From IMG/VR virus record IMGVR_UViG_3300020048_000107: a stretch of DNA of 20,000 nt. One strand, given 5' to 3'. The notes beneath the pieces were generated by a model that was not told where the DNA came from, searched no databases, and saw nothing but the letters and a program-made list of their open reading frames with translations. Positions 1 to 19,977 of this stretch are shown here, in pieces; the stretch's first letter is position 1; each line of letters opens with the position of its first letter. Source of the DNA: an uncultured virus (IMG/VR IMGVR_UViG_3300020048_000107) (Duplodnaviria; Heunggongvirae; Uroviricota; Caudoviricetes). The position numbers and the translations under genes were made by a program.

Positions 1-3000
1 TTATTCTCCAGTTCAAGAAACCAGGATAAAGCTAATATAGTAATTGATTATTTCAAACCAAAAGAAGGAGAAACGCCAACCCCTTTTGAGAGTTTTATAT
101 AGGCGTTGACAGAAAAGGGTACTCCAAAAAGAACAATTAACAATTATGTTCAAGGGTACGAATACTTTAAAACTATTGCTGATAAAGCTCCTGTGGAAAA
201 TACTTCACAGGAGTCAGCTAGTGATATTAGTACAGATCTAATTTTAGAAAGTAAACAAACATTTATAGATGATGTATTTACATTCGCTTCAAAACATGAA
301 GGATTAAGTAAGTTATTTAAAGACAAAGACCACATATATCAAAAATATAGTTGGTTTATGTCAAAGTTCTTGATATCCCACATGTTTTATAATAACACGC
401 AGACAAAACAAATTAGTAATAGTCAAGAATTAAAAATACATTTAGTTGGACTTATTAACTTTTATGCATCTGTTTTGGATCCAGCCAGATTCACAACTAA
501 CGATTCGTTAGGAAAAGATGATCCTCGTAAACCGTTCTTAAAAATAACTTATGATTTTACAAAGAACATTACGATTACATCTAATAAAAGCGATTGGTAT
601 TATTTAAATCATTTGTAGAATGAGACATTGAAAAATGCTAACTTCAACACATTAAAAGATTTAAAGTATGTACCAAAATCAAAAATGGATCCTAATATTA
701 AGAAGTTGGTTGTAGCAGTATCTTATGCTAATTTTAACACAGTTCTACAAGAATACTTACCCGGGGTAATTACTGTCAATAGTAGTTTACCTGGTTTTGA
801 TTTTGTTAACATTAACAATGATAACTTATACGTTTTAAACGGTAGTAGTTAGGGTAAGGGTTGGCAGACGGAAGGTAAGGTGTTTGATAGCAATTCTAAT
901 TTAGCTAAATTGTTATTAAATTCATTTGAAACTGTAACAGCATATAAAGATAAAAATGGGAATTTTGCTTTAAACTTTGATAATAATCCCAACTTTTCTG
1001 TAGCTATATATTATTATGTTAGTTAGTTTTTATCCAAACACATTAACAAACAAAACTATGCTAATGAATTTAATAATTTATTAACTGCATTAATGTAGTT
1101 CAATGTGCCTTATAATAACGATAGTTTATTAAGACATTTAACTAACACTAGACCAGAGACTGTAGGTAGATTCACTTATGATTATATAGATGGTAATGTA
1201 GAATTAAAGGAGATCTTTAAAGATACTACTTTATATTCTGTTGTTGCCACTTTATATTATAACATGGCTACTATAGATGGAGATCCGGTTTTGAATCAAT
1301 TAAATTTCGATAAATATATATCTGAAGCAGCTTAGAATAAAATATCATTAGCTAAAATCTATAAGAAACACGTAGACAGTAGTATGTCTAGTATTCATGA
1401 TTTGATTTTTGCTACATTACAAGGTACTACCGAGAGGTTGTATCACGATTTAACTTATGATTTTGACAAAAGAATTTTCTCAAGTAAATCTTTAGCGTAG
1501 ACTGTAGTAAACAAATCTATATTTGAAGTACAGAAAATGCATAGAAATTTAATTAGTCTTAGTGATGAGAGAAGAGATTCTTTATTTCCAGAAAAAGCAG
1601 TTGTTCCTGGAGAATCTTTGAGTATACTTGTTAATGGAGCACCGGTTGAAATTACTGTTGCTAACAAACGTTGGGTTTTACCTTACGATAGTAGAGCTAT
1701 AAAACAAATTTATGAAATCTTCTATCAATTAACAAATTTTGATTTAACTCAAGATTTCATGTTAAGAGAAAATCCAGCTTTCAATCTACAAAACATAGTT
1801 TCAGTCATTTATGGTATGCTTGCTATCAATGATGATCCCGATGCTAAGTAGAGATATAGAGAAGAAAATAAAGCGTTAGGTGAAGAAATTTGGAGTAAGT
1901 ATAGTCCAACAAACAATGTAAATAGTATCTTATATCAAATGGGTGCTTAGTATGGTAAGTTGACTGGAGTAATGTCCAAAATGACCATTCTTAATAAAGA
2001 CGGAAAACAATTACCTACTTTTGGTATGCGTAATATATCTAGTAGTTATGATGCTTATTTGTTAGAGGCTTAGGAACAACCATTATTAAAAGGTAATATC
2101 TTTACTAAAAATCCAAAGTTATATGTTGGTAGTTCTATTAAAAATCAAATAGTAAAAGACGGTAATATCGTTAACGTTAGAGAATCTAATGATAAGGATG
2201 CTGCCATCTTCGATATTTATTTTGAATGGTTACAAAAACACTTCTACAATGAAAAATTAGTTGAAGGTAACAACTCTATTGGGGATGGTACATTTAATAT
2301 TCAACCACTTGTACCGGCTGATAAAGTAAATCAAAACGTAATTAAAATCAACACTGGTGTTAATATAAAATACGATTCTTTTAAAGTTGATCAATTCACC
2401 ACTAATTTAACAAAAACATTATCGAGTGATCTTCTCAATTCCTTACCTACAGATTATCGTGGCGCAACAAGCGAATTGAAAGAAGCTTAGTTCTTTTCTT
2501 TAGGTGCTCAACATAAAGCACGTAGAGATAAAATATTAACAGCCTATAACAACATCTTATTAGCTAACAATCTACCAATGGTAGATAGTCTTAAAGAATA
2601 GTTTGAAGTTACAAAAAATATCATCACTGCTAAAGGCACAACTTTAGAAAACGAATTGTTTGTTAACAATCCTGGTGAAAATTTAACAACAGAATTATAT
2701 TTTTCTACGGTATATAATCCAGATGGCTCAAAAGGTTATGCTCTGAACGATACATAGTTGTTCTTTTTTGATTTGTTTGATGTTGAATCTTCTGTAGCTC
2801 ACGTACCTAACATGGATAAGTTTAGTAAGTATCATAATTTGGGTGTGTTTGAGTTTTTATACAAAATGAAAAAACACAACATTGATGCTTCTAGTCCGGA
2901 AATAGGATTGTTTCCAAAATCCACTTTCAAAATAGAAAACTTAAGTAAACCTACTAATCGTGTTGAATCTATATTGTAGGATTTAAATTCTATTTTAGGT

Positions 3001-6000
3001 AAAGACGAGGTATTTGAAAGTTTGTATGCTGAATTGACAGAAGCTATTTAGAATGACGATGTTGATTTCTTATATAGTGATGGTTTACAACAAAGAATAA
3101 ATGATGTTTTATAGAAATCAAGTAAAATCTATCAACAATATTACTGGGAAAATTATTTGTTTGGACAAAATTATGAAATGAGTGTTAATGGTCCAATCTA
3201 TTTACACCCATAGAAAGATTTACCAACGCAAAAAACTCATTATAGTGAGATTTTATCTAGGTTAGCTGTATCACAAAAACGAAATGTTGACTACTCTGCC
3301 ACCGTTATACCATACAACTATGGTTTAAATGGTCCGGCCAGGGTTAGACAAGTCTATGTCTATAAAGATCTAAAACGAAAAGTATCTAACCCAATGGGGG
3401 AAGTAGCTTCTGTAGATACTCATGACGGTGGAGAACTTATATTAATGTTACATAGAATATTAGAGAATAATAGTATGTAGGGTTATTAGAATCCTATATT
3501 TCACAAACCAATTATACATGGTAGAATGTTGAATTAGAATGGAGATTTTGAAGATTCTATGTTGTTTAAATACGCTTCATATTAGTTAACTAGTTAGAAA
3601 TTAAGGTCTAGCAGAAAGTTACGAAATATGGTTCAATACGCTTTGTCTGAACCACTTTAGTTTAGCGATTTAAAAGAATCTGTGTGGGATTTCACAAGAG
3701 CCTACAATGGTAAAAGTAATTCTATAGAGTACGGTAAGTATCAAATTGCTGTAAAAACAGGACTTGGAAACAGGTATAAAGTGTTGTTAAATCTTGCTAA
3801 GATAGGTGATAACGATTATTCAGCTACTTGGGAAGACCAAGATGGTAAAATAACTACCGATAACAACATAGAACTGAATTCGCTTTACGATTTATACAAA
3901 TTATTAGGTGCAGAACGCACTGTAAAAATAAACAAATAGAAAGAAATAATAGAGTATAATGAGAACGCTTGGATAGCTTTATAGGATGTATGTTGTAAAG
4001 TGGGATTTGAATTAACAGAAGACGTATTAAACAGTTCGATAGGTTTAGAATATGCAAGATTATCAGGAGTATCTTTACAGAACTTAAAGAATAATCTGAA
4101 TAATAACATTAAAAATCAACAAAATATAATACAACCTTTAAAGTTTTCTTATGTAAGTCAATTTACACCAGAAACATGTATTAAATATGGTTCTGTAATA
4201 GGTAATGCTAATAATGATTTTACTGTTAAGGTTAACCCGGAAGAAGACGATTAGACCTAGACCACGAGAACATTACAAGAATGGAAAGGTTCACACAGAA
4301 TAATGCGTGTTTATGACATGCTTGGTGGTGTTCAGCAAGATGCCGAACACGAAGGTGATGAATAGACGGAACCAACACAAATGATAAATGGTGCTTCCCT
4401 CGACAATCAATCACCCGAATTCCTAGACTTATATAAACATATAGCTAATTATGTCATTCGTAAAATGACAAAAACATATAGTGGTAATACTTAGTTTGTT
4501 TCTTCTCCAGAAAAGATGGAATCTGACGACGATTACTTTATGACTCATATGCGTCAATTAGCTTTTATTTATGATAAGTTAGAAAAGCAAATATTAAATT
4601 CGTCTTATGATAATGGAAATACTGCCGCTGTAGTTTTAGCTTCTGCTTTAAACTTTTCAAAAGATTTTATAGCTTTAGATAGAAATACCAAAGACGATGA
4701 TCCAAACAAAATATTACGTGCAAGAGGATTAGCTAGTAAATTTACAGTTTCTTTAAGTCACCCATCAGTTTACAATATGGTAATCACCGCTCTCGCGGCC
4801 GCCAACACTAAATTGGGTATTAGAAGAATGGGTGCTGGTTCTGCTGCTGTTCAATAGCCTCACCAAGGACATATGTCTTTCTTATAGGTACCTTAGTTGG
4901 AATCTATAAATAACAATGTGTCTTAGGATGATGGTGATTTTATGCCTTCGAGTTTAGGTAAGGTATTTAATTATGACAATTACACAACAATGACAGCAGA
5001 TCAATTCTTTGAATATATGGGTGAACATCCAGAATATTAGGAATTGACCAGAGAATCTAATCGTTATTCTTTAGTTTGGGATATCAACACTGGTGTATCT
5101 CGTTGGAACTTAAATCTTTATAATCATTATGTTCTTACTACTGCTGATGGTTCAATTGAAGAACTCTACGTTAAAGACATCAATGTTTTAAAATCCTTAA
5201 AACAAAGAATTTATAACGGTGAATTCACTAACATAAAACAAGACAAACTATCAGGATTTGATTGGTCACACGATCAAGGTAGAGATTTGAAACATATTGA
5301 TTTTGAAATAACTGTTAATGTTCCCGGAGAATCAGACGCAACTATCGTTTATAATATTTATGATACTATAGCCAATGAATTCTTGCTTAAATTACAAAAG
5401 TTAGATTGGGAAAATCAAGCAGAAAGAAATCAATTAATTAAAGAATTCAATACTGTCATTAAACAGAATTCGAACGAGTTAAAAATGTTCACCCAAATCA
5501 AATCTATTTTAAATAAAAAGGAGTTTGCAAACATACTTCGTTCTTTATTAAATGTAGAATACAAACTGATGTCGGAAGGACGAAAATTAATTACCGCTGA
5601 TGATGAAGCTCTTATTTAGTTTTTGGGAAATGAGATTTCTGATTTTGGTATCATTCCTGTGGTTAAAGTAAAGAGTGTTGATTCTGAATTAATTATGATG
5701 TTGCCGTTTGCCGATAAGTTTAAAATATCTAATATGAATCACTTATCAGATATCACGGTAGACTCCATTATGAACAGATTGAACAAACAATATTATGAGG
5801 TTGAGGATTTGTTGTTAAAGGATAAGAATGGTAAAAAGTACAAAATACCTTATTTCTTTCAAGCAGATAATGGTAACATTTATTTAGCTGATGAAAATGT
5901 AGGTAGTTCTGGATTAGAAAGTGTTGATCCTTATGTTTATATAGAAGATAACAAGAAATATGTAACTGTAGGCAACAAACAAATCATTGAAATTACTAGT

Positions 6001-9000
6001 GATTTAGAAGGTAAATTAAGGATTTAGTATACTAAAAACAACGAACCAGTATTAGTTCTTTTAACAAGTAATTAGGAGATGAATCCTGTTAAGAGTGATA
6101 AAGAAGGAGAATTGATCGACAATTTTAAAACGAACATTAATGTTACATTTTGGAATGGGTTACAAAAAAACATCAATGAAATTAATTTGTCTGAGAGTAC
6201 ATTTATACAAAACAATCTTGATTCAAGTAATGGTATATCATCTTGGTTAGACGCAGAAAATATAACAGAATTCACATCAGAGGAAAAGAAAAAGCAATTA
6301 GCTAGAGAAATATATTCTGCTTATCAGATGGTATTACGTTTTGCATCAACACGTATTCCAGGACAAAGTTATCAATCATTTGCATCTACTAGAATTAGTA
6401 ATTTCTTACACGGCGAATAGAATGCTGTATACGTAAATGACTATACTATATGGTTAACTGGTGGTGACTACGATATTGATAAATTATATAATATAGGATT
6501 CAATTTAAGTAAAGGGGGTAAATTTATAGGATGGCATAGATTTTTTAATGCTTCTTCTTATGAACACTTAAAAGAATCATTAAAATTACCGGGTTAGGAC
6601 AACACAATTAAAGAGAGTACAAACGACGATGCTGTTGACTTAAACAGTCCATAGTATGAAGAAGATGGAATAACAGATCCAGATACAGGTGATGTGTTCG
6701 TTAAAACTGTTTCTGGTAAAGATCTCATTTAGATGATCTTAACTAAAAATGGTAAAATGCACAATCAAATATCTTTAAAGAAATTTAAAGCATTTGTTAA
6801 ATTATACAATTCACTTGTACAAAAAGGTTATAAAAATGCAGAATTGACAGAGTTTATTAAAGAGACTTTAAACCATAAAAACGTAACCACATTTGTTGCG
6901 GCTGATGAAGGTAAAGCTTTGCAGAATAGAATGATAACACAAATAAGAAGCAACTTATCTGATATTCGAAATGTAGTTCCTACCTATTCTCCAATTAGTG
7001 TTGGTGATAGATCTTCTGGTCCAAAGGGTTTAAAGATGAATTCTGAAAAGTATATTGGTTCACAATTGGGTCACCCAGACGTTCCATTAAAGAGGATAGC
7101 TGACGTAAGTAATCAATCCTCAGGAAAGAGTGTCGTAGGTATCATGGCCGCAGGGTTAAAACTCTACGCTACAATATCTTATGTTGTTGAAGATATGCTT
7201 TATAAAAACTAGAGTGTAGAAGAATTAGAATAGATGTTATTCAGTCACACTGCAACAATCACTGAAAATGGACAAGTGGTAATTATAAACGTTAGTAATG
7301 GTTTTGCTGGTATTAATTATGAAATAAATAAAGATTTGTATGAACTTTAGTTATCTCAAAAAGGTTTAACACCAGACCAAATTAACGAATTAATTATCGA
7401 TCATTACAAAAGGGATAGTGTGTAGTTGAATATTAGTTAGTTATTATCGGCCGCCACTGACAACGGAAAAGAAATGATCTTAGGTATCATCAATTCCGGG
7501 AAAGAAACTTAGGGTATATACACATATGCTTTAATGACCGGAATGTCTCTAGAAGATGTGGGTGCTTTAATGACAAGTAGAGAAATAGATTTTATAATTA
7601 AGAATACCAAACGAAGTATTTTGTTAAACGATCCGTTTAAGACAATGATAGATGTTGGTAATTATTTTTTAAACCCAATAGACTTAGACACTTTTGTACC
7701 ATTTGGTAGTAAGTAGACTATTTTAGCTTAGTTAGATTTGGAAAAGAAGGAAGAGAATTTAGGTTTAGTAAGTATAAAGGATATTGAAAAAGCCATGGAA
7801 TCAAAATAGTTAATCTTGAAATAGTTGGCTATAAGTAACTTAAGCGAAGAAGAACAAGAATACTTTGATGAAGAATGGTCATCTAATTACAGCACAATCA
7901 TAAATGCTTACACTTTATTACAGAATTATATTAACGCTAGGAAAGAAGTAGAAGAATTGTTATTAGAAGAAAATAGTAAAAATAGAGTATCTTTATTTTT
8001 AACTTTTTTAAATAATGCTTAGTTGTTTGCTTCAACCACACAAGTGTTGGGGGCCAATCAAAGAGTAAAACCAAACGATAGAGAATTAATAAAGTTCTAT
8101 GTTAGTATAGAAGATAGTATTAGAAATTATTTGTTTAGAGTTGGTTAGAAAACAAAAGGTGGTACTGATACTTATATACTTAACAACAATAATGATTGGT
8201 CAGAAGGTACACTGAATCCAGAATTACAAGAATTTTTGTAGACATTTAATTTATGGAAATTTATGAATTCAACACCTGAGGAAGCACAAAAGGCAATTTA
8301 GTTGTTTGATAAAGTAAAAAGTGATCTAAATCCATTATAGATTTTTTATCATGCTGAACACTTTAGAGAAATGATCAAAACTGTTTTAATGACGGATGCT
8401 ATATTGAAAAAACAATCTCTTGTTTATAGGTCGGTTGCAAAATTTCAAGAGCAAACGTTGTTGAACCACATGAAGAAAAAAGAAAAGACAGCAGTATTAT
8501 TTAAGAATTAGACTACTGTAGATGTACAAAAGAAAGTAGTTTTAGAAAGGAACCTTGGTCCAGAAGCATTCACTGTATTAAAAAACATAATGGATGATAA
8601 ATTTATTGTAGAAAGTCTACACTTATTACAAGGTAGATTAAATGCCGAAAAGAAAACAATCTACATAATGTCAGAAGAAGGAGTTCCCAAATAGGTAAAC
8701 CTGTAGTTACTAAGTGAGGAAAATAATATATTAGGTAGAAAGGAATTTATTAAATTTATGGAAGAAACATTTATACCAAGATTAAAGTTGGGAAAAATAA
8801 ATGATGGTCCCAAAGAAACAGTGAATCCAAACATACGTAATAATGCTTTCATCACGAGTTTACAGATTAAAGATTTTGTTGTACGTAATAAAAGGGGAGA
8901 AAGATTCTTAGCTTATGGTGTGGCAAACTTCAAATCTAGTGATAACTTGTAGGTTAAATTAAATCAGAACGAGCTTATGATAGCTCTGTATGATTTGGAT

Positions 9001-9432
9001 AATCTAGATGATTCCGAATATAGACCAACACCAAATAGTAATGGTACTTCTGTTATCGATATGTTATTCTTATATAATATAATATTACATAGAGGTAAGG
9101 ATGGAGAATATACATTAAGTAGTTTCTTCGATCCAACTAAATTACCAAGTTCTATAGTTAGTAAATTTTATATGTAGGAAAATTAGGTTAATAATACTAT
9201 CACCGACGTTTTAAAAGTATCTGAATAGGATTTAATAGCTAATGGTTTTGATAATGAATTATTACCGAAATTAGAATTGATGTAGAGTAGTAGATTTTCA
9301 CCGGATTATCGTTATATTAATATGGGAGAAACTACTACAGAAGAACAAAAAAGAAAAAGTTTGGATCAAAAATTAAAAACATTATTTGAATCCGGATTTA
9401 TGGGTCTAAATATAAAATTCGATTGTATATGA
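1..9432 (+). CDS. Giant virion-type DNA-dependent RNA polymerase (two-barrel, crAss-like single chain), 5'-truncated by the window edge, >3143 aa with TAG read through
   Basis: All + strand track ORFs from 106 to 9177 lie in frame +1 and end at TAG. The gaps I translated contain no TAA/TGA until TGA at 9430-9432. Catalytic loop WLTGGDYDIDK (6451-6483, DxDxD) is preceded by RIPGQSYQS (6352-6378). Other motifs I recall from crAss-like RNAPs: SQKRN (3271), DTHDGG (3415), QQDAEH..TEPTQ (~4333-4380), SAATDNGKE (7447). Confidence 0.92.
6460..6483 (+). other. RNAP catalytic Mg-binding loop GGDYDIDK
   Basis: ggt ggt gac tac gat att gat aaa. It matches the DFDID/DYDID variant of the NADFDGD motif known from phi14:2 gp66 and crAss-like RNAPs. 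It lies in a TAG-bounded gap missing from the ORF track. Confidence 0.92.
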
Positions 9433-12400
9433 TATGTACAGCTTATATGAGTTCAAATGGGTGGGGTAATCAAATTACCCCACTTTTTCAGATTGAAGTA
9501 ACAATTGATGGTGACGAGTCTTTAGTTAATGAAATTAAAGACATGTTGACATCAGATATTCCTTATACTGATTAGATGGATCAACTCGAAAAAACATTCA
9601 ATCCTAATACGGATGTGAATGGAAATATCGTGTTGACTAAGGATGGCGCTACGGTGACATTAACCATCAACAAAACTAATTTGTTAGATGGATTAACTGT
9701 ACAAAATCTATTAGATAAAATAAATATGCCAAATTTAAACTTAGATAAAGACACCAATGTTGCTATCTTATTAAAAGAAGACTATCACACACTATATCCA
9801 AATTTATATAGTAATGCTGTTTATGATGCTGAAAACAAAGCTATAGTGGTTGGTGTAACAAGTATTTTTGATATAGATGCTTTAAAAAAATATATAAAAG
9901 ACCCGGGTGCAAAAGGTGATGAAATGTTAGATAATTATTTAAAAGTTATCAAACATGAATTAGCGCACCACAATATAGAGACTAAAGAAGAGTTCTAGAA
10001 TTACAGAAACATTTAGGCTAATGCAGAGAATTATACAAGTCAATAGTTACATATTGCAGCATAGATTTAGAATACACCTTACGCGGACTTAAAATTACAC
10101 TTACAAGGAACTACTAACTATCCAAAATTCTATACTGAATTGTTTGCTTGGTAGGAAGCTGATAAAGATTTCAAATCTTTATTGGAAAATAACAAACATT
10201 ATCAAGATGTTTTGTCCCAATTACCTGAGCAAAAAGAAACTCCAACTCGTCCTGAAACAACTGAATTCTTTAATGAGACTGAATTGAATAAGGCTAATAT
10301 GGGTGTTATCCCTGAAAAGATTGGTAATTTAGGGGTAGGTGATTTAAAAGCTTATAAAGAATATCTAGATATTGCTTATGGGGAATACATTCCTGTAGAC
10401 GACAGAAGTAATAATTATACTGCACAAATTCATAGTTTTCAACCAGGAGAATTAGTTTATATACAATGGACAATTAAAGGTGATGAAAAAAGACCATCTG
10501 CAAACTTCATTAAAAAGACTGAACGTTCTGGAAATGACATTGTATTAACAGTTTCTGGTAGACAATATGATGCAAAATAGGTTTATGATAAAACTGGTAA
10601 AACAGACAATAGACCTTGGAAAGACAAGATAGTTATTATAAAAGCTGATGGTACAATCGAAAGTGAAAAACTTAGAGATAAAGAATCAGATTATAAAGCT
10701 AGAATTGTAGCATTTAGAAAGTTTGCTGGTAAGCCGGTTGGATTTACCAACGATGGTATCGATAGAAACATAACTAGTAAAGAAAAAAACTTGATCAATT
10801 CCAATACAAACAATTGGTTCTTCGCTAATGAAAATGCAAAGAAGGTCGGTAAGTATATGGAAAAAGAACAAGTTACTAAAGTTAAAGCAGAAGAATAGTT
10901 GTTAGCTAAAGGAGAACTAAAGAAAATAGACGGAAAGTATCCTAAATTCTTAAGTTCCATATTTGGTTAGAGACACGACGAAAAAGACGATATTGGTTTC
11001 TATTTTAAAATTGACGATTCCAGTAGCAAAACAGAAGTCGGAAATAATGTTATTAGTGTTGGGGATAGATTGGTTACTAAAGCTCAAAATAACGAAGCAT
11101 TAAATGATGCCTCATACAACTTAATAAAGGTTGGTGACATTGTTACATACAAAGAGTGGTCCGACAATAAAAGTAAATTCTATGATGTAGTTGTATTAAA
11201 AACATTTAAAGAAGGTTTATTAGTACAAGACATCACTAATGGAGAACCATCAGGAGAACCGCACACCATAAGAAGAAAAGATTTGTTTGCTGTATATAGT
11301 TTCTTCAATAAAGATTCTGATAGAGAGTCCGGTGTTGTTACTATTTTAAAAGATTTCAAAGAAATTTCGGATGAGTTATATGCTAACAGACCTACAGCAA
11401 AAGAAAGTGCTAAAAAAACAATATTCACATTAAAAGAATTATCTGATCCAAAAATCTATAGTTATGACTCTTATAGTTTTAGAAGTTATACTAAAGATAA
11501 AGACGATCAATACGCATTAAGTAGAGAAGGTTCTTTTTTCCATCCTAGTGATGAAACTGTAACTTACATTTATGGAGATCAGAATTTTCCAAGTGAGGAA
11601 TATCAAAAGTTTGAAAAAGAACTTTCTAAAGTATCTTCAAAAGTATATAGTGTTTTAAAAGAGAAAGTTAAAAACAACACAAAGGTTAATGTTTACAGTA
11701 GAGATTTAGAAGATTTAAATTCAGACGGGAGTTATAGAAAAGATAGTTTTGGTAATGAGTTAAAAATTGGTCCAATCATAGCAGATTTACTATCTGGTAG
11801 AGGTGATCTAAAAAAATTACAACATTATTTGGAAATGTAGACAGTTAAAAAACATAGACGTGATAAATTGTCTTTGTTAAAATCTGGATCTTATGTTTTA
11901 TTAAATAAAAGGAAAAAAGAAAAAGGAACATTTGCTAAGCTAAAAGAAAGACAACCTGTATATGGTGTTGTTCTTGCAAGGTCTAAAGACTTCTTAACTG
12001 TTGCTATACCAAACTTACAATGGAATGAAACGTTAGAAAAATACAACGACTTCGAAGATTTCAAAATCATACAAGTTAATGTAATGGATTTTCGTGAGGA
12101 TAAAGAGTATGATGTGTCTAAAGTTTTTAACAATATGAATTTCGAAAGATCCCTCATTAACACATTGTCGACTTTAAAATAGCTTATTTCTCAAACACAT
12201 GCTTCTAGCGCTAAAGTAAATAAAGAGAATGCTGAATAGTAGGTTAAAGAAATGCTCGCACGTTTAGAAACTGAAGTATAGTTGGTAAGAGACGAGAGTA
12301 AAAAAGACGAACAAATTGTAGCAAATAGAATAAGCGATTTCTACACAATGGTAAGTTTTTATACTAACTTCGATTATATTATAGCAGAAGAGAAAGAACA

Positions 12401-14351
12401 TTTAAGATTGAAACCTCATGACATAGAAGCTAGAAATTAGGATAGATAGTATTATGTTTCTAAATTAGAAACAGGATCTATCGTTTCATACAAAAGAAAG
12501 GCTTACAGAAAAGATGGAGGTCCTCTACAACATGGTGTAATAAAAAATTTTATGGTAATTGGAAGAGATATATAGTCTGGGAAACCAATTTTAGCTGATA
12601 TCTACATAAAAACAAAAAACAATTATACGTTTAGTTATGTTGAACCATTTATTGCTGACATTAATAGTATTGTCGGTGTAGGATTTTTAAAAGAAACAAT
12701 TCAATCTACACACTTAGAAGTTGATGGTACGGAATCTATAATCACTATAAATCCTAATGATAAATTTATACAAGATCAAAAAGATTTATTAAAATAGTAT
12801 ATAGTTTCTCAACAAGTAAATAAATTTCCAACTGAAAAAGAAGCCGAAGCTAAAAAAACCGAAGTGTTAAAGACGTAGGAAAAGTACGGATGGAAGTTTC
12901 CACCGGATTTATACATTGTAAGAACTGGTGAAGTTGAGATAACATACAAAACTCGTAAAGGTGAACGTACTTATAGAAAAGAAGTTCAATTACATGACGA
13001 TGGTAAAAGACCTGTTGATGCTAAATATAAGAATTATGATATAATAGAAGGTTCTGTTAAAATAGGATTGTTTCAAAAGTGGGATGATGGATCAATGAGA
13101 CCTTATTCAGACAGGAGTTATCATTTAAACTTTTCCTTCAAAGGTAAAGATAATAAGTGGTTACAACCTAAAGGTTTAAAAATAATTGATAAGATAGTTA
13201 GAGGTACGGTAGTAAATTACACTTATGATAAAGGTAATAAAACTTATTTTGGTAGTGGTATTGTACTTTACAAAGAAGCTTCTTATGTGATGTTGTTAAA
13301 GTTCAAACAGGATTCGGAGAATCCAAAAGACTTTGATGACATTAATCCAGACGAAATAGATATGGATGATATTAATATGTTTCCTTTATATTATGGGAGT
13401 GTTAATATTGGTGATGCTAAAAATCCAGAATACGCATTAGTATTACCGAATATCAGATCTTTAACGTTCACACAAGGTATCAATCGTACTCAATTTGATG
13501 CGTTAAAAGTAGATAGTGATATGTCAAAACAAGGTAAAACTAATGATAGAATATACCGTTCTAATGTAAAGGATTCTACAATTATTAAAAGAGAGGATAA
13601 AACTATCATCAAATTTAGTAAACACAATCTTTCTAGAACAGAGAAGTTATAGAACATAGAAGACCTAAGACAATATTAGAATAAATTTAAAGCTTTATAT
13701 GGTATTGATTTTAAATTGTTAAGTAGAAAAGAGATATAGGAAACCTACGATAATAAACCGGAATACAACAATGGTATTGTATCTAACTATAGAGCTTTTA
13801 AAGTGAATGATGACCATATAGTTATTAATACAGATTTAGCTTCTTTAGCAGCGCCATTTCACGAAATGTCTCACTTTGTAATAGAGGCTTTATATAAAAC
13901 CAATAGAGAATTATATGACGAATTAATTTAGGCCACTAAACAACATCCGTTGTAGAAAACAATAGCTTTAGATTATCCAGAACTTAATGGTAGAGATTTA
14001 GATGAAGAAGTGTTTACTAGTGTGTTAGGTTATACATATTCTGAAAATGTTAAAGAAGGTAGAGTATCTAATTGGGAGAAAAAACACGAATCTTTATTAG
14101 GTAGATTTTTAGATTAGTTAAGACGATTGTTAAGACGATTAATAGGGAAAGATATCGACATTGATATCAACGATAAAGAATTAGTACAGAATAGACAGAA
14201 AGACATTTTAATTGCTTTCGGTGAAGATCTGGAATCTGGTAAATTTGTTGGAGACGTTAAAAACAAAGAACTAGCAACTGATATTAAAGCGTTAAAGCAT
14301 TTAAAAGAAAAATTAATTGTTGACGGAAATTTAAATATATACTGCTTATGA
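9429..14351 (+). CDS. Large (1640 aa) putative virion cargo / RNAP-associated protein with two zincin HExxH motifs and tandem SH3/KOW-like repeats
   Basis: ATG at 9429 overlaps the gene 1 TGA (ATGA). Frame +3 appears interrupted only by TAG, including tandem TAG-TAG at 12237-12242, until TGA 14349-14351. HELAH at 9954-9968 is followed by ELFA. HEMSH at 13860-13874 is followed by DEEVF (14001-14015). An alternative start at ATG 9543 is possible. Confidence 0.85.
9461..9488 (+). terminator. Intrinsic terminator/attenuator-like hairpin just after the RNAP gene, inside the 5' end of gene 2
   Basis: GTGGGGTAAT-caa-ATTACCCCAC is a perfect 10-bp GC-rich stem followed by TTTTT. Confidence 0.65.
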
Positions 14352-17300
14352 GCACATGTAAATATGAATTAAAATTTAACGATGAGGTATTCTCATTTTC
14401 TTCAGAGGAGGCTCTAGACGAGTTTCTTCTGAAGAATTTGGATAATATTTCATAGAAGATAAAAGGATAGAGAATATCCGCAAGTAAAGTTCTAATGTCA
14501 GAAGTGGAGGAAACTAAACTTAAGTTAGCTGAACTTGAAGCTGCAGCCCGTAAGACAGGTAAAATACATAACGATTATTATGCTCCATTCGATGAAGTAG
14601 TGGAAGTTATAGAAGCTGATTCTTCTTACTCCGCTATTACAAAATACATCAATGAAAAGCAAGCATTAGTAGGTAGTGAAGAGAAGAAAATCATCATGAC
14701 CTATGATGATGAAAAACATAACCAATGGATTATATAGGATTATATTCGTCAACAATAGGGTATATCTGGTAGAGTAAAAAAAGACAATCCAGATTATCTA
14801 AAAAAGAAAGAGGAAATTTTTAGTGATCCATTACAAAAGAAATAGATGGAAGATTATTTGATGGCGGCATTAGAAAGATTTTAGAAACAAAATATATTTG
14901 GTAGAATAATTCACAACGGTATAGAATTATCGATGAAAAAACTTATAGAGTTTGGACCAGATAAATTTTTAAATAGAGAATATTTTAATGTGGATGTCTT
15001 TACAGCATGGAACGAATCAAATATTCGTGGTGTAGAATTCACAGATCAAGAAAAAATACGTTTTAGTGATAGAATGTACAACTTAATGGTAGGAACTAAC
15101 GGAAAACCTGGTTTGTATCAACGTTTAAACTTATAGAATTAGAAATAGGTTTATTCTGAATTTCCAATTTCATACGTAAGTCCTGATGGTTCAACTAAAT
15201 TGATTGGTGTTATTGACCTTTTAGTAATTGATAAGGATGGTAAAGCTCATATTTATGACTTTAAAACCTCCACTAAATCTACCGATCACTGGTCATCTAC
15301 TAAACAATTTAGATCAAGATAGCAATTAGGTTATTACGCTTAGATAGTTCGTAATTAGGGTATTGAAATATAGGACATATAGATTCTTCCAATAGAAATT
15401 GATAGTAACACAAATTTTGATACTATACAAGAAATGACATTAGGGGATAAAATATCTATTTTAGCAGACTTACAAGGTGCGGATCCAAGGTATAGGAGAA
15501 TTATAAATTAGATTCAAGAAGATATTCCACAAAAAATATCTGAGAAAAATCTATCAGAAACAGGTACATTAGCCGATATAGATAGAGTTTTAAAGAAAAC
15601 ATTAAATGTAGATTATAGAGATAAAATCCCAAAAGTAAACTTAGAAGAAAAATTTGAAAATCTATGGACTGAGCAAATTGGTAAACCAGCGAAATATTTT
15701 TACAATAAAGTTACTAGCGAAAGAGAACTGTTACCGGTTGATAAAACAGATTAGAAAAATGCTTTTATAAAAAGTGAAGAAGAATATAGGACTAAAGCAA
15801 TGGCCGGCACATTAGTAGATAGATTTCAATCTTAGTTTTTAGCTTATAAAAGAGATCGTGCTGATAAACCTTTAGCCTACAGAAACGAAGTTCCATTTGT
15901 TTTATCTGGTAGTGAGACTAGAAAAGAAGATGAAATAAAGCAGGCTAATATCAACTTCAATAAAATTTTTGGAAAATACAAGGGTGAAGAATGGAAATTA
16001 TTAGAAAACGAAACTGCTAAACAATTGGGCTTCATGTTGTTCTAGAATCATGTTTCTAAAGTAGTTGACATTGTGTCTATTACGGAAGAAGATTTAACTG
16101 GAACACATTAGCTACCACATGGTAAAAGTCTCCTTGGTAATGTTTATAGCGATACTAACTTTAATGTTAATAATGATAGAAAAATATTAAACTCTACTAA
16201 AGGACATGTTGAACTTATGAAAGTTATGGCTTTTTTAAATTTCAATACCAACTTTTTTACAGCAAACCAATATGCTATTGGTAACATCAAAGCTGTAAAT
16301 AATTATGCTGGTGGTGAATTTATGGAGTATGAAACTTTAAAGTACAATTTCGCAAAGTTACTTGCTGCAAATGATTTAAATTAGGATTATAAATTAAACA
16401 AAAACAATCTTGATTCTGCTAATCCTGTACAAATGTTATTGTCTACTATATAGGCAGTTGAAACAAGTTCGAACTACTTAAGATTAGGCTTTTCTAAAGA
16501 ATCAAATTATCAAGATTTTAAACGAAGTGTTTCTGATTAGTACAATGTTCCTGATACTGTAGAGTTTAGACAAGAGAAAATAAAAAACGAAATATTAAGC
16601 GTTTTAAAAACAGAACTAAAACACAGACTAAAAGACAGAAGCGAAGATTCATTTAAGAATCCAACAGAAGCAGATTATTTCACAAGATTGATATTAGGTT
16701 AGATTAACTATTACACAGATAGTTATGTTCCACAATATGAAAAAGGAATATTCCATCATGTATTAGAGACTAACACAATAGGTAATTTACCCTCTGCTGT
16801 AATCAATTCTACAAGAAAAATCTTAGACACTTATATAGAAAACATTAAGATTAGGTTCTTAGATTATAAAGAAGACATTAACCCTATTACAGGTAAATTG
16901 TTTGATGAAGCTGGTTTTTCTAAATTGAGAAGATACACAATGGGTGACCATGTTAAAGCATATAAATAGTTATTTCAAGTAGATAAAGATGGTAATGTAG
17001 ACCCTAGGTTTTTATTCAAAAATCCATTTGATAAAAAGAATGATTTAACAGAAACACAAAGGACTTATTTAAAAACCATTTTAACTACTATGAATGATCT
17101 TCGAAGTACTGAATTGACTATAGAAGAACAGAATGCAAGGGGTGATTATAAGTTTTTACAAATACCTTTAATAAAATCACAATACATATCGTTTATTAAA
17201 ACCGGTGATTTTAAAACACAATGGAGTCAATGGGTTAAAAAAATACATAACCCGGAAGAGATGTTGTTTGGTAAAGAAGTTCCTTAGAATACTAAAGAAA

Positions 17301-19084
17301 AGAAAATGTTCTTGGAGTTAAAGAATGGATTTTCCAGACAAGATGGTGATTAGAGAATGGAAATGTTACAAGAGAACGATATTAAATCTTTTGAAACAGA
17401 CATAGAGGCAGTAGTAGATTTATTCGTATTAACACATTTAAGGAGTCAAGAATTCAATAAAGCTTTACCTTTAGTATAGGCAGTTAAGTTAACTGCAATT
17501 ATGGACAATATAGGTGTTTTAAACGATATACAGCCACTAACAGCTTATGTAGATGATCATTTAAAGATAGTTGTAAAAGGTGAAAATTTAGTTAAACCAG
17601 GTTTGGAGAAAGCCAGTGCTGCACTTGCAGTTGGTAGACATCTTACATCCATGGCTAACTTAATGATGAACCCTATATCAATATCACGAGAAATGACTCA
17701 AGCTTTTTATGGTGCTTAGTCTAGGGCCGCTGTTAAAATGTATGGAAAGAATTCTCATAGTTTAGCCGACCTAACAAAGTAGATGGCTATAGTTGTAGGA
17801 GAAAGTCGTAAAGATATCTATCAAGATATGAATATAGTAGAGTCTTTGAACATAGCTTTTGGTTTATCCAATATGAATTTAGGTTCTATTATAGACAGAT
17901 CTTCTTAGACAAAAACGGGTTTACCACATCTAATGTCCAATTACCTACAAGGTTTTAATAGAGCTCCAGAGTATATGGTTCGATTAAGTATTTTTATAGC
18001 AGAGTTGATTAAAGACGATGCTTGGAAAGCTTATAGTTTTGATGAAAAAACAGGTCTAAAATACAATTGGAAGTTAGACGGTAGATTTAGTACTTATGCT
18101 TCTTATATGAATAAAGAGGATAAATTACCAGCAATGATAAAAGAGAAATACTTTATACAAAAAGGACTATATCAAACATTATTGTAGGAATTTAATAAAG
18201 ACCAAGATTCTCTTGTAACTGAATTACCACATGCTTATACTACCAAACAAACAGAATCTATTAAAGCTTATGCCGATAGTATATTAGGTTATTATGATCC
18301 AAAGAGTAAAATTCATGCACAGTCTGGTTTTATAGGTATGAACTTTTTACACTTTAAAACTTGGATGATCGCTGTTAAAGACAAATGGTATTTAACAGGT
18401 CAAAAATCAGAAGTCATGGGAGCCTTTATACCTATGAAAGACGAAATGGGAAATCAGGTTTATTTAACTCCAACTGGAGAATTAACTTTAGAAAAAGAAG
18501 GAAATTCCCCGGCACAAATTTGGGATGGCAAATGGTGTGAAGGAATGTTACAATCAATAGGTAGATTATTTAGAGCCGCTTATGGTACTGACTTCTCTGA
18601 GTTTACTAAAAATATGAGTGGTGGATTTTAGAATATGCGAGAACTATATAACAACGATGAGAAAATACAATAGAATTTAAAATTGATGATCTCTGACTTA
18701 TTAGTAATGTTATTAATGTCTGTGATATTATCTATGTTATTCAAGAGTATTTGGAAAAACGATGTGAGTTTTGGTGATGCGATATTATCAGCTGTATTAA
18801 CTTCCCCATAGGATTTAAACCCGATTCGACCAGCTAGTAGTTTGTTGAAGCCTAATGGAGGTTGGATATTTCCACAGTTTAATTACTTCTATAATGTTTA
18901 GCATGGTTTCGGTAAAGTTTTATTTGGAGACAAAGAAACTGCAGAATGGGCCATGGAGACATTTGGTATGACACGTCCATTAAAATTCCTTTTAGAAGAT
19001 GATCAATCATTATACGTACCTTCATTTTCTGGTATGGGTGGTGGTAACTTCGGAGGAGGTGGAGCAGGAGCAGAATGGAAATAA
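14348..19084 (+). CDS. Large (1578 aa) putative virion cargo protein with an N-terminal PD-(D/E)XK (RecB-like) nuclease domain, a C-terminal hydrophobic helix and a Gly-rich tail
   Basis: ATG at 14348 overlaps the gene 2 TGA (ATGA). Frame +2 appears interrupted only by TAG until TAA 19082-19084. Nuclease motifs: GRIIH (~14900), SEFPI (15155), LIGVIDLLVIDKDGKAHIYDFKTS (15200-15271), QLGYY (15323). Hydrophobic segment LMISDLLVMLLMSVILSMLFKSIW (18683-18754). Confidence 0.87.
14398..14436 (+). promoter_or_regulatory. 17-bp RNA hairpin (3 G-U pairs) in the 5' coding region of gene 3
   Basis: TTCTTCAGAGGAGGCTC-tagac-GAGTTTCTTCTGAAGAA pairs fully as + strand RNA when G-U pairs are allowed. Function is unknown. 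Confidence 0.4.
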
Positions 19085-19089
19085 TAGAC

Positions 19090-19133
19090 AAAAAAATAGC
19101 CCTATACCAAAACGGTATAGGGCTTTTGCTTTT
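19090..19133. terminator. Bidirectional Rho-independent terminator between convergent genes
   Basis: AGCCCTATACC-aaaac-GGTATAGGGCT (19098-19124) is a perfect 11-bp stem. It is flanked by an A-run (19090-19096) and TTTGCTTTT, and lies between the stops at 19084 (+) and 19147 (-). Confidence 0.9.
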
Positions 19134-19146
19134 ATATATTCTTCTC

Positions 19147-19977
19147 TTATCTGAATATGCTCAGATATGCTGTTATAGGTACATTGTTGCCATCTACAGA
19201 GATTAGCTTACCATTTGACTCAACGAATTTTTTAACGCTTCCTGCGCCTCCTAAATGCTATCCAGCGGCCAATCCATTTTCAGTCATAACTATTCCTCCA
19301 ATAGTCTTACCAACATACTTTTTTAAACCGAGTTTCTCTAGATTAAATTCTTTTAACTTTATAGCTGCTACGTGTTGATTAGCAGAACTCTACATATAAT
19401 CATCAACTTTTATTTTGATAGTCTTCAATGTAGATGGTCCAAATTGATATAATCCACGATAACCGGCAGAATTAACCACCTTATAATTAGAACCACTTTC
19501 TAAATGTTGTAACAACTTTAAATATCTTTCGTCCTCTTCTGTAAAATTTAAATCTTCTATTTCCTTAGTAATGTTATTTGGTTTATATTTTTCAGCTCTT
19601 TTTAAAATATTTCTCTACATAGTTTTAGGATCCGGTTTATCTTTATAAAGACCTACTGATCCATCTTGAGCCTTAATATAATGGTCGGGTAAAGTACCCA
19701 TTAACATTTTATCAAAATAACCTAGACTTAAACTATTAATTTTTGGAGAAGATTCTTTCTTCTCTTCTATTTCAGGTTCTGTAGTTATATCTTCTTCTAA
19801 TGTTTCAAAACCCATATCAACCTCAGGATTAACCTACACTGTAGGAGATATAATTTCTTCTGGTGCTTCCTCATACATCTATGATTCATCTCTAGTTGGT
19901 GACTCGAGATTTCTATATTTAGAAGTAAAGACACTCATTTTTTCTTCTGGTGATAAGTTATAAGTCGTAGTATTCAT
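19147..19977 (-). CDS. Lysozyme-like / lytic transglycosylase-fold peptidoglycan hydrolase (276 aa) with an acidic N-terminal linker
   Basis: ATG 19977 to TAA 19149-19147, with five in-frame TAGs (19879, 19834, 19615, 19390, 19258). The C-terminal domain reads LQHLESGSNYKVVNSAGYRGLYQFGPSTL...KYVGKTIGGIVMTENGLAAGQHLGGAGSVKKF. This gives a catalytic E-S (E at 19498-19500), a GLYQF motif and an AAxHLG motif typical of the lysozyme-like superfamily. Confidence 0.85.

Follow-up and report, generated by a model that had tools for sequence, protein, structure and literature searches.

TAG as a probable alanine codon in the virion RNA polymerase block of an aquatic crAss-like phage

Reassignment of the stop codon TAG has been reported for crAss-like and other gut phages, with glutamine as the encoded residue (PMC7886860, bioRxiv 2021.08.26.457843, PMC9523058, and PMC11210395; see also PMC8629427 and bioRxiv 2026.08.21.746148). 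Phage surveys give glutamine, a review adds serine in the part available (PMC4695839), and the word "alanine" is absent from the main texts of the four former reports, as far as these were accessible. UAG is read as alanine in the mitochondria of Hydrodictyaceae, for which this is established, and of Neochloris (Zihala and Elias 2019, PMC6821328) and, according to the accessible parts of the same paper, it is decoded in Hydrodictyaceae by a transfer RNA, tRNA(CUA), related to tRNA-Ala(UGC). Here, we analyzed a stretch of 20,000 nucleotides (the window) from an uncultured virus (IMG/VR record IMGVR_UViG_3300020048_000107), the genes of which contain numerous in-frame TAG codons. Judged from sequence comparisons, the window very probably comes from an aquatic crAss-like phage that uses UAG as an ordinary alanine codon, and it comprises a virion RNA polymerase (RNAP) block, encoding transcription and ejection proteins, together with a lytic gene.

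The window resembles the gut phages assigned to translation table 15 in its low GC content (30.6%), in the presence of TAG in late or virion genes and in a lytic gene, and in the retention of TAA and TGA as stops, and it shares the crAss-like RNAP block with the table-15 crAss-like phages. It differs from the gut phages in the residue, which by the present tests is alanine, and in habitat, since the sequence occurs in runs from aquatic and lake-water metagenomes (the two best of which belong to one study). With the mitochondria of Hydrodictyaceae, the window phage would share both codon and residue; there, the code is organellar and constitutive and is accompanied by an altered mtRF1a, whereas here it would belong to a phage whose host presumably keeps the standard code and an intact release factor 1 (RF1). 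TAG as alanine is found in print for algal mitochondria only, and a search by titles and abstract beginnings, with subscription journals and bioRxiv supplements mostly outside its reach, returned no published report of it in a phage or bacterium. It thus appears that this genetic code has not been described for phages before.

Under the standard bacterial code (table 11), the window breaks into 20 open reading frames (ORFs) of 80 to 256 amino acids (aa). Read with TAG as a sense codon, the fragments join into four ORFs of 3143 (5' open), 1642, 1578, and 276 aa: gene 1 (1-9432, + strand, 5' end beyond the window), gene 2 (9423-14351, +, likely start ATG 9429), gene 3 (14348-19084, +), and gene 4 (19147-19977, -). 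They hold 64, 26, 35, and 5 in-frame TAG codons, respectively, including a tandem TAGTAG at 12237-12242 (+) inside gene 2, and end in TGA, TGA, TAA, and TAA. No in-frame TAA or TGA was present in the four genes, compared to 189 and 345 TAA plus TGA in the off-frames of gene 1, and this absence alongside 130 TAG is far beyond chance. When TAG was treated as sense, stop-to-stop frames of 300 codons or more covered 95% of the window, compared to 0% under table 11 and 0% when TGA was the codon treated as sense. The DYDID catalytic loop of the RNAP (6466-6480, +) lies in no table-11 ORF because the segment containing it, bounded by TAG 6418 and TAG 6595, has no ATG, GTG, or TTG. A first-pass annotation, made from the letters alone, had reported the TAG recoding, the four joined genes with their stops, the tandem TAGs, and the RNAP loop invisible in the standard code, and had proposed the coding-density comparison; all of this was borne out.

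The TAG recoding in the window is real. Eight listed contig pieces from run X2, which belongs to the same study as the possible source run, aligned to the window with 0 differences, so that the TAGs are not sequencing errors. Table-11 database fragments from four relatives at 94 to 100% identity end immediately ahead of window TAGs, and none of the 39 listed strain variants in genes 1 to 3 (37 codons) introduces a stop. Recoding extends to all four genes, including gene 4 on the opposite strand, and none of them is a replication gene.

The first-pass annotation had taken the encoded residue to be glutamine (code 15) and linked the recoding to gut phages; neither of these points was supported. 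For the residue, we compared codons with the DNA of a relative at 40% amino acid identity (L004), after masking Q and TAG in the alignment. Window TAG codons faced CAA or CAG of L004 in only 2/61 cases, compared to 33/91 for window CAA/CAG codons (Fisher P = 4.5e-7). The former figure tells against glutamine because TAG to CAG would be a one-step synonymous change if TAG encoded glutamine. The alignment of TAG with Gln, or its exchange with CAA/CAG, that table-15 recoding predicts was not seen for the window in this and most other tests (a Codetta-like score and a 20-state tree model dissent; see below), while it was seen in the control, the gut phage L002 (MT835492), which has a homologue of gene 3. 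In the opposite direction, L004 TAG codons stood opposite window Ala in 15/133 positions, Gln in 5/91, Ser in 5/227, Glu in 1/179, and Lys in 1/231, whereas those of the control phage stood opposite Ala in 0/70, Glu in 4/98, and Lys in 6/127. An earlier alignment to L004 gave alanine enrichments of 6.3-fold (14/48) and 3.9-fold (7/50) and log-likelihoods of -268.5 for Ala, -292.5 for Ser, and -300.9 for Gln. The pooled non-TAG partners of TAG (n = 98) included 21 A, 10 V, 10 S, 9 N, and 7 Q. The exchange of TAG with GCN (TAG to TAG 10, to GCN 7) resembled that between the two serine codon families (AGY to AGY 20, to TCN 9). If read as alanine, TAG makes up 27 to 32% of the alanine codons in each gene; the composition of gene 1 (Ala 6.4% or Gln 5.0%, depending on the reading) does not discriminate.

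Individual TAGs also coincided with alanines of conserved motifs. In gene 4, the TAG at 19258-19260 (-) occupies the alanine of an A-H-L motif, and this residue was Ala in 4/4 homologues read from DNA (4 of 8 records, with duplicates and PTm5 omitted); in the database proteins, P0164 shows Q at this position and P0165 terminates exactly there. In the RNAP core, the TAG at 6418-6420 (+) corresponds to Ala (GCN) in L004 and to Ala in the outgroups P0019 and P0033, which score best among the distant homologues, in a column that is variable among distant homologues. Three further TAGs, at 7423, 7438, and 7510 (7423-7512, +), surround an LSAATDNxKE motif, and all three are Ala in P0019 and P0033; at column 7510, Ala is also the residue of 61% of 62 distant homologues. 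UAG was thus found at conserved alanine columns, with serine admitted as well by the Q-masked comparison to distant homologues when taken alone (see below). Among the non-Q residues of ten database homologues, Ala made up 53/330 at window TAG columns (3.3-fold enrichment) and 24/445 at CAA/CAG columns (1.1-fold), counts in which the cells are not independent.

We also fitted a home-made 21-state tree model with BLOSUM62-derived rates, in which TAG has its own state and a database Q may be either Gln or TAG. Ala came first in all four overlapping sets, two for gene 1 (L004 included or excluded) and two for gene 3 (likewise for L003, a standard-code relative of L002, MT835470), with bootstrap support of 958 to 1000 of 1000. 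Compared to Ala, the log-likelihood deficits were 81, 28, 46, and 32 for Gln and 45, 19, 21, and 10 for Ser. For the control phage L002, the same model returned Gln in 669/1000 bootstraps, the remainder being R and K, with Ala 70 log-likelihood units behind. By these sequence-level comparisons, TAG was shown to be a sense codon that is common to the relatives and lies in alanine-type, not glutamine-type, columns. As for the control phage itself, TAG = Gln applies to its + strand late block (3-30450), while its - strand block (30880-40387) is almost without in-frame TAG; the record has six Rfam tRNA matches, none of them an amber tRNA.

Several results weigh against alanine, and most of them would favor glutamine, the residue expected from the literature. 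In the ten database homologues, Q filled 36% of 499 cells at TAG columns, similar to the 40% of 632 cells at CAA columns. However, wherever it could be checked, this Q was circular: P0008 is 90 to 96% identical to L004 and L005, the DNA of which has 60 and 21 in-frame TAG, and in the P0010 cluster, a JGI fragment stops immediately before one such Q. P0008 and the P0010 cluster are therefore code-15 translations whose Q at TAG columns returns the assumed code, and the Q of the other eight homologues is presumed to have the same origin; P0169-P0171, P0175, and P0177 are split elsewhere than at Q and are uninformative. Homologue Q was moreover commoner opposite window Ala (106/1119) than opposite Glu (94/1532) or Lys (107/1969). 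The inference of Gln from plain alignment to database homologues was dropped for this reason, and the homologue-column check suggested in the first-pass annotation points to Ala once the circular translations are removed. A 20-state tree model preferred Q in three of four sets, but it charges each TAG separately under non-Q readings, without codon inertia, and was set aside; Cys came second or third in three of its four sets, indicating that TAG needs a state of its own. The Codetta-like check, also suggested at first pass, gave a divided answer: for the window it scored Q 9.7 over A 4.9 (bootstraps Q 1367, A 414 of 2000), a result biased toward Q because the alignment is guided by a Q-bearing profile, while L004 came out as A and L002 as Q. 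Further points on this side are that L004 TAG faced window CAA in 5/78 cases, above background, that 63 distant homologues show Gln in 29% and Ala in 49% at column 7438, and that the TAG partners of gene 3 in L003 carried little signal (A 2, Q 1 of 32). In addition, L004 is the one independent close relative with DNA, L005 being 99.9% identical to it. Against these stand the scarcity of CAA/CAG pairing, the alanine motif positions, and the deficits of Gln in the 21-state model, which does recover Gln in the control phage, and we regard glutamine as largely refuted and highly unlikely.

Serine or another small residue finds its support in the Q-masked comparison of the window alone to 66 distant homologues (25 columns), where Ser (-0.7) was marginally ahead of Ala (-1.2), with Gln at -3.9 (bootstraps S 1209, A 661, Q 52 of 2000). 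For the window, this test rejects Gln and leaves Ala and Ser unseparated, while it returned A for L004 (1434 of 2000) and Q for L002 (2000 of 2000). Serine was also second in the earlier L004 alignment and in the 21-state model, and the accessible part of PMC4695839 mentions UAG as Ser in phages. The direct counts opposite window Ser and Ala speak against it, as do its deficits of 10 to 45 log-likelihood units, and its enrichment was no higher at TAG columns than at ordinary Ala columns (1.7-fold at both), so that we hold this reading, too, to be very improbable. Ambiguous decoding, mostly as Ala with some Gln, or a switch from Gln to Ala that left old Gln sites behind, could account for the residual pairing of TAG with CAA and for the lower share of Ala in distant homologues at TAG columns than at GCN columns (0.13 versus 0.28), and U35 of an amber anticodon attracts the glutaminyl- and lysyl-tRNA synthetases (GlnRS and LysRS; available part of PMC9976931). 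However, the alanine signal of Aeromonas phage AhSzw-1 (see below) is likewise softer at TAG (26% versus 39%), and weaker conservation of TAG sites is therefore expected without ambiguity; TAG to CAG, the commonest single mutation, may explain some of the Gln partners. We consider this explanation unlikely. That the TAGs are true stops, in a decayed prophage or through assembly errors, is suggested by nothing but the fragmentation under table 11; the absence of in-frame TAA and TGA, the strain variants without stops, and the same pattern in L004, L005, and the fragments of the relatives at 94 to 100% identity refute it, and the chance left to it is negligible.

The reading of UAG as alanine gained a precedent in a cultured phage. 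AhSzw-1 (MG676225; our record G001, loci L134-L139), a T5-like Shenzhenvirus of the Demerecviridae, is TAG-recoded and is filed under table 15 in the part of Supplementary Table 1 of PMC11210395 that was available. Its TAG codons stood opposite Ala in 64/248 and 62/223 positions of two standard-code relatives, and opposite Gln in 10/248 and 10/223. The phage encodes an amber tRNA (L137:691-765) that carries G2-C71, G3:U70, G4-C69, and A73 and lies next to tRNA-Ala(UGC), six bases from it; these acceptor-stem features and A73 are the bacterial alanine determinants given in the accessible part of PMC9976931. From its sequence, AhSzw-1 appears to read TAG as Ala. It resembles the window phage in having TAG recoded and opposite Ala, and differs in being T5-like, without any shared protein. 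Since the two are thus unrelated, AhSzw-1 may serve as a precedent for the mechanism but not as proof for the window phage. Four other Aeromonas phages, 85 to 93% identical to AhSzw-1 in TerL, may share its code.

An amber-tRNA pattern scan of IMG/VR returned at least 117 loci, many of them perhaps chance or non-tRNA matches, and a fully paired GGG...TCC acceptor was present in 18 of the 117 loci listed. No homologues of the window proteins were found in 123 amber-tRNA loci listed or in 5 + 5 whole records, and no relative of gene 1 in the 10 amber-tRNA records searched. Among the other phages encountered, a TAG-recoded phage of 102 kb (G003; L140-L144, also L013) has a G3:U70 amber tRNA at record positions 67925-68000; phAss-1 and Enterococcus phages are its distant relatives (24 to 29% in the portal protein). 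Candidate amber tRNAs whose acceptor stem is of the Ala type are further present at L151:10001, L152:10001, L009, L022, and L083 (IMG/VR), and L151 and L152 look TAG-recoded, with coverage rising from 0.40 to 0.79 and from 0.20 to 0.75, respectively.

For the window phage, we propose an amber tRNA (CUA) bearing the alanine determinant G3:U70, which would be encoded elsewhere in the phage genome, be charged by the alanyl-tRNA synthetase (AlaRS) of the host, and outcompete RF1 during infection, a scheme that we infer to be reasonably likely. Under this scheme, full-length products of the recoded late and lytic genes would not appear until the amber tRNA has accumulated. Such a tRNA would be the simplest decoder because the bacterial alanine determinants given in the accessible part of PMC9976931 are those of the acceptor stem and G20 and include no anticodon position, and any host AlaRS could charge it because AlaRS ignores the anticodon. 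Competition with host RF1 and late timing follow the model in bioRxiv 2021.08.26.457843, as far as that text was available. No tRNA gene was found in the window, and no tRNA-CUA in L004 or L005.

Taken as one combined proposition, we find it probable that UAG = Ala is a real phage code that has evolved repeatedly and has been mis-filed as table 15, that it is fixed across an aquatic crAss-like clade (the window, L004/L005, and the sources of P0001-P0010), that cultured T5-like Aeromonas phages acquired it independently via a G3:U70 amber tRNA, and that public databases show Gln at about a third of the alanines of these proteins. Table 15 is hard-coded in pipelines such as prodigal-gv and Pharokka-gv. 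If UAG is alanine, about 2% of the residues in database translations are wrong, and these wrong translations then "confirm" Gln in later alignments, as in our ten-homologue alignment. The stop-to-alanine code of green algal mitochondria would then also occur in viruses of bacteria, undercutting the idea, put forward in the accessible part of bioRxiv 2021.08.26.457843, that GlnRS and the tryptophanyl-tRNA synthetase are uniquely open to hijacking. The claim is testable in AhSzw-1, a cultured phage that shows this signal and encodes an amber tRNA of the Ala type.

The crAss-like affiliation, already mentioned in the first-pass annotation, was supported by the gene content. Gene 1 holds RIPGQ...GGDYDIDK, with the DxDxD loop downstream of the RIPxQ motif. 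A structure model of aa 2068-2567 (pLDDT 78.6) had the virion RNAP of the crAss-like Cellulophaga phage phi14:2 (gp66, PDB 6VR4) as its top match in both fold searches (Foldseek probability 0.99, E = 0.029; VIA Z 9.2, root-mean-square deviation 4.9, 290 aligned). Gene 1 shares the catalytic-region fold and the DxDxD loop with gp66, and differs from it in sequence (15 to 20% identity), in length (at least 3143 aa versus a chain of 2166 residues), and in belonging to a separate clade. On the basis of this model, gene 1 is assigned as a large crAss-like virion-type RNAP with the fold of gp66. It had no match in Pfam or PHROG, and a PDB sequence search with the window proteins gave no match. Six full-length homologues of gene 1 were found at 34 to 69% identity, in addition to the likewise close relative L004. 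In a quick tree of 39 RNAP rows (2 of 41 were dropped for lack of a motif match, and P0008 was omitted as a near-duplicate of L004), the window, L004, and five of the six homologues formed a long-branched clade of seven with support of 100.

Gene 3 contains a PD-(D/E)XK nuclease domain at aa 263-338 (about 15134-15361, +; PF12705, E = 1.4e-7, over cut-off) and has four full-length homologues at 42 to 47%. The window thus combines several large proteins, one of them with the RNAP DxDxD motif, and a PD-(D/E)XK domain in a large protein of the same block, and this gene set fits the crAss-like transcription block as defined in the accessible part of PMC7886860. The structural genes conserved in crAss-like phages (MCP, TerL, portal, IHF, genes 74/75, and tail proteins) lie beyond the window. 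The N-terminus of the gene 2 product is 28% identical to the next gene of L004, and a family search with gene 2 gave matches below cut-off only. Two HExxH motifs (9954-9968 and 13860-13874, +) suggest zincin-like domains and possibly a double zincin-like protein. Gene 4 encodes an SLT lytic-transglycosylase-like protein (PF01464, E = 4.3e-5, over cut-off) with homologues in Tenacibaculum phages, cr118_1, and MedPE-SWcel-C56; the best matches, to the Tenacibaculum phages, are only a hint toward a Bacteroidota host. The N-terminal 100 aa of gene 4 are acidic and of low complexity, and the gene is recoded on the opposite strand, unlike the L002 genes in that position. L004 has another TAG-recoded gene of 2695 codons (L004:1641-9725) ahead of its RNAP gene, and by analogy more giant virion proteins are probably encoded upstream of the window.

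Genes 1 and 2 and genes 2 and 3 are joined by ATGA overlaps, in which the stop of one gene meets the start of the next, and a bidirectional hairpin resembling an intrinsic terminator (19098-19124, z -5.6) lies between the convergent genes 3 and 4. Promoter-like sites in the window were not above shuffles (100 versus 108), and Rfam gave no matches in the window. No close DNA relatives were found by megablast against phages or in genome contigs, and IMG/VR gave one weak locus or none. RNA runs were absent among the listed runs with the sequence. The lake-water runs X3-X5 contained strains at about 90 to 99% identity, in which stretches at 2391-2474 (gene 1) and 15658-15800 (gene 3) are replaced by 307 and 135 other letters, respectively.

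Only eight Cys codons occur in the four genes, four of them within four residues of protein ends: at the C-terminus of gene 1, both termini of gene 2, and the N-terminus of gene 3 (9420-9440 and 14335-14360). The C-terminal Cys of gene 1 and the N-terminal Cys of gene 3 are invariant across homologues, and the consensus start of gene 1 is MxxC. These terminal residues could possibly act as a head-to-tail link or as a packing signal of ejection proteins. Codons of the NGC and CGN types are rare in 1-19084 (TGC 1, CGC 1, AGC 18, GGC 12), and GpC occurs at codon positions 2-3 28 times versus 83 expected (about a third), and at positions 1-2 289 times versus 319. Avoidance of GpC as a driver was rejected as not general: the observed/expected ratio is 0.82 in the window, whereas L004 and AhSzw-1 have ratios of 1.22 and 1.06, respectively. 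The most under-represented 4-mer is CTAG, and C follows TAG in 6/130 cases and precedes it in 4/130.

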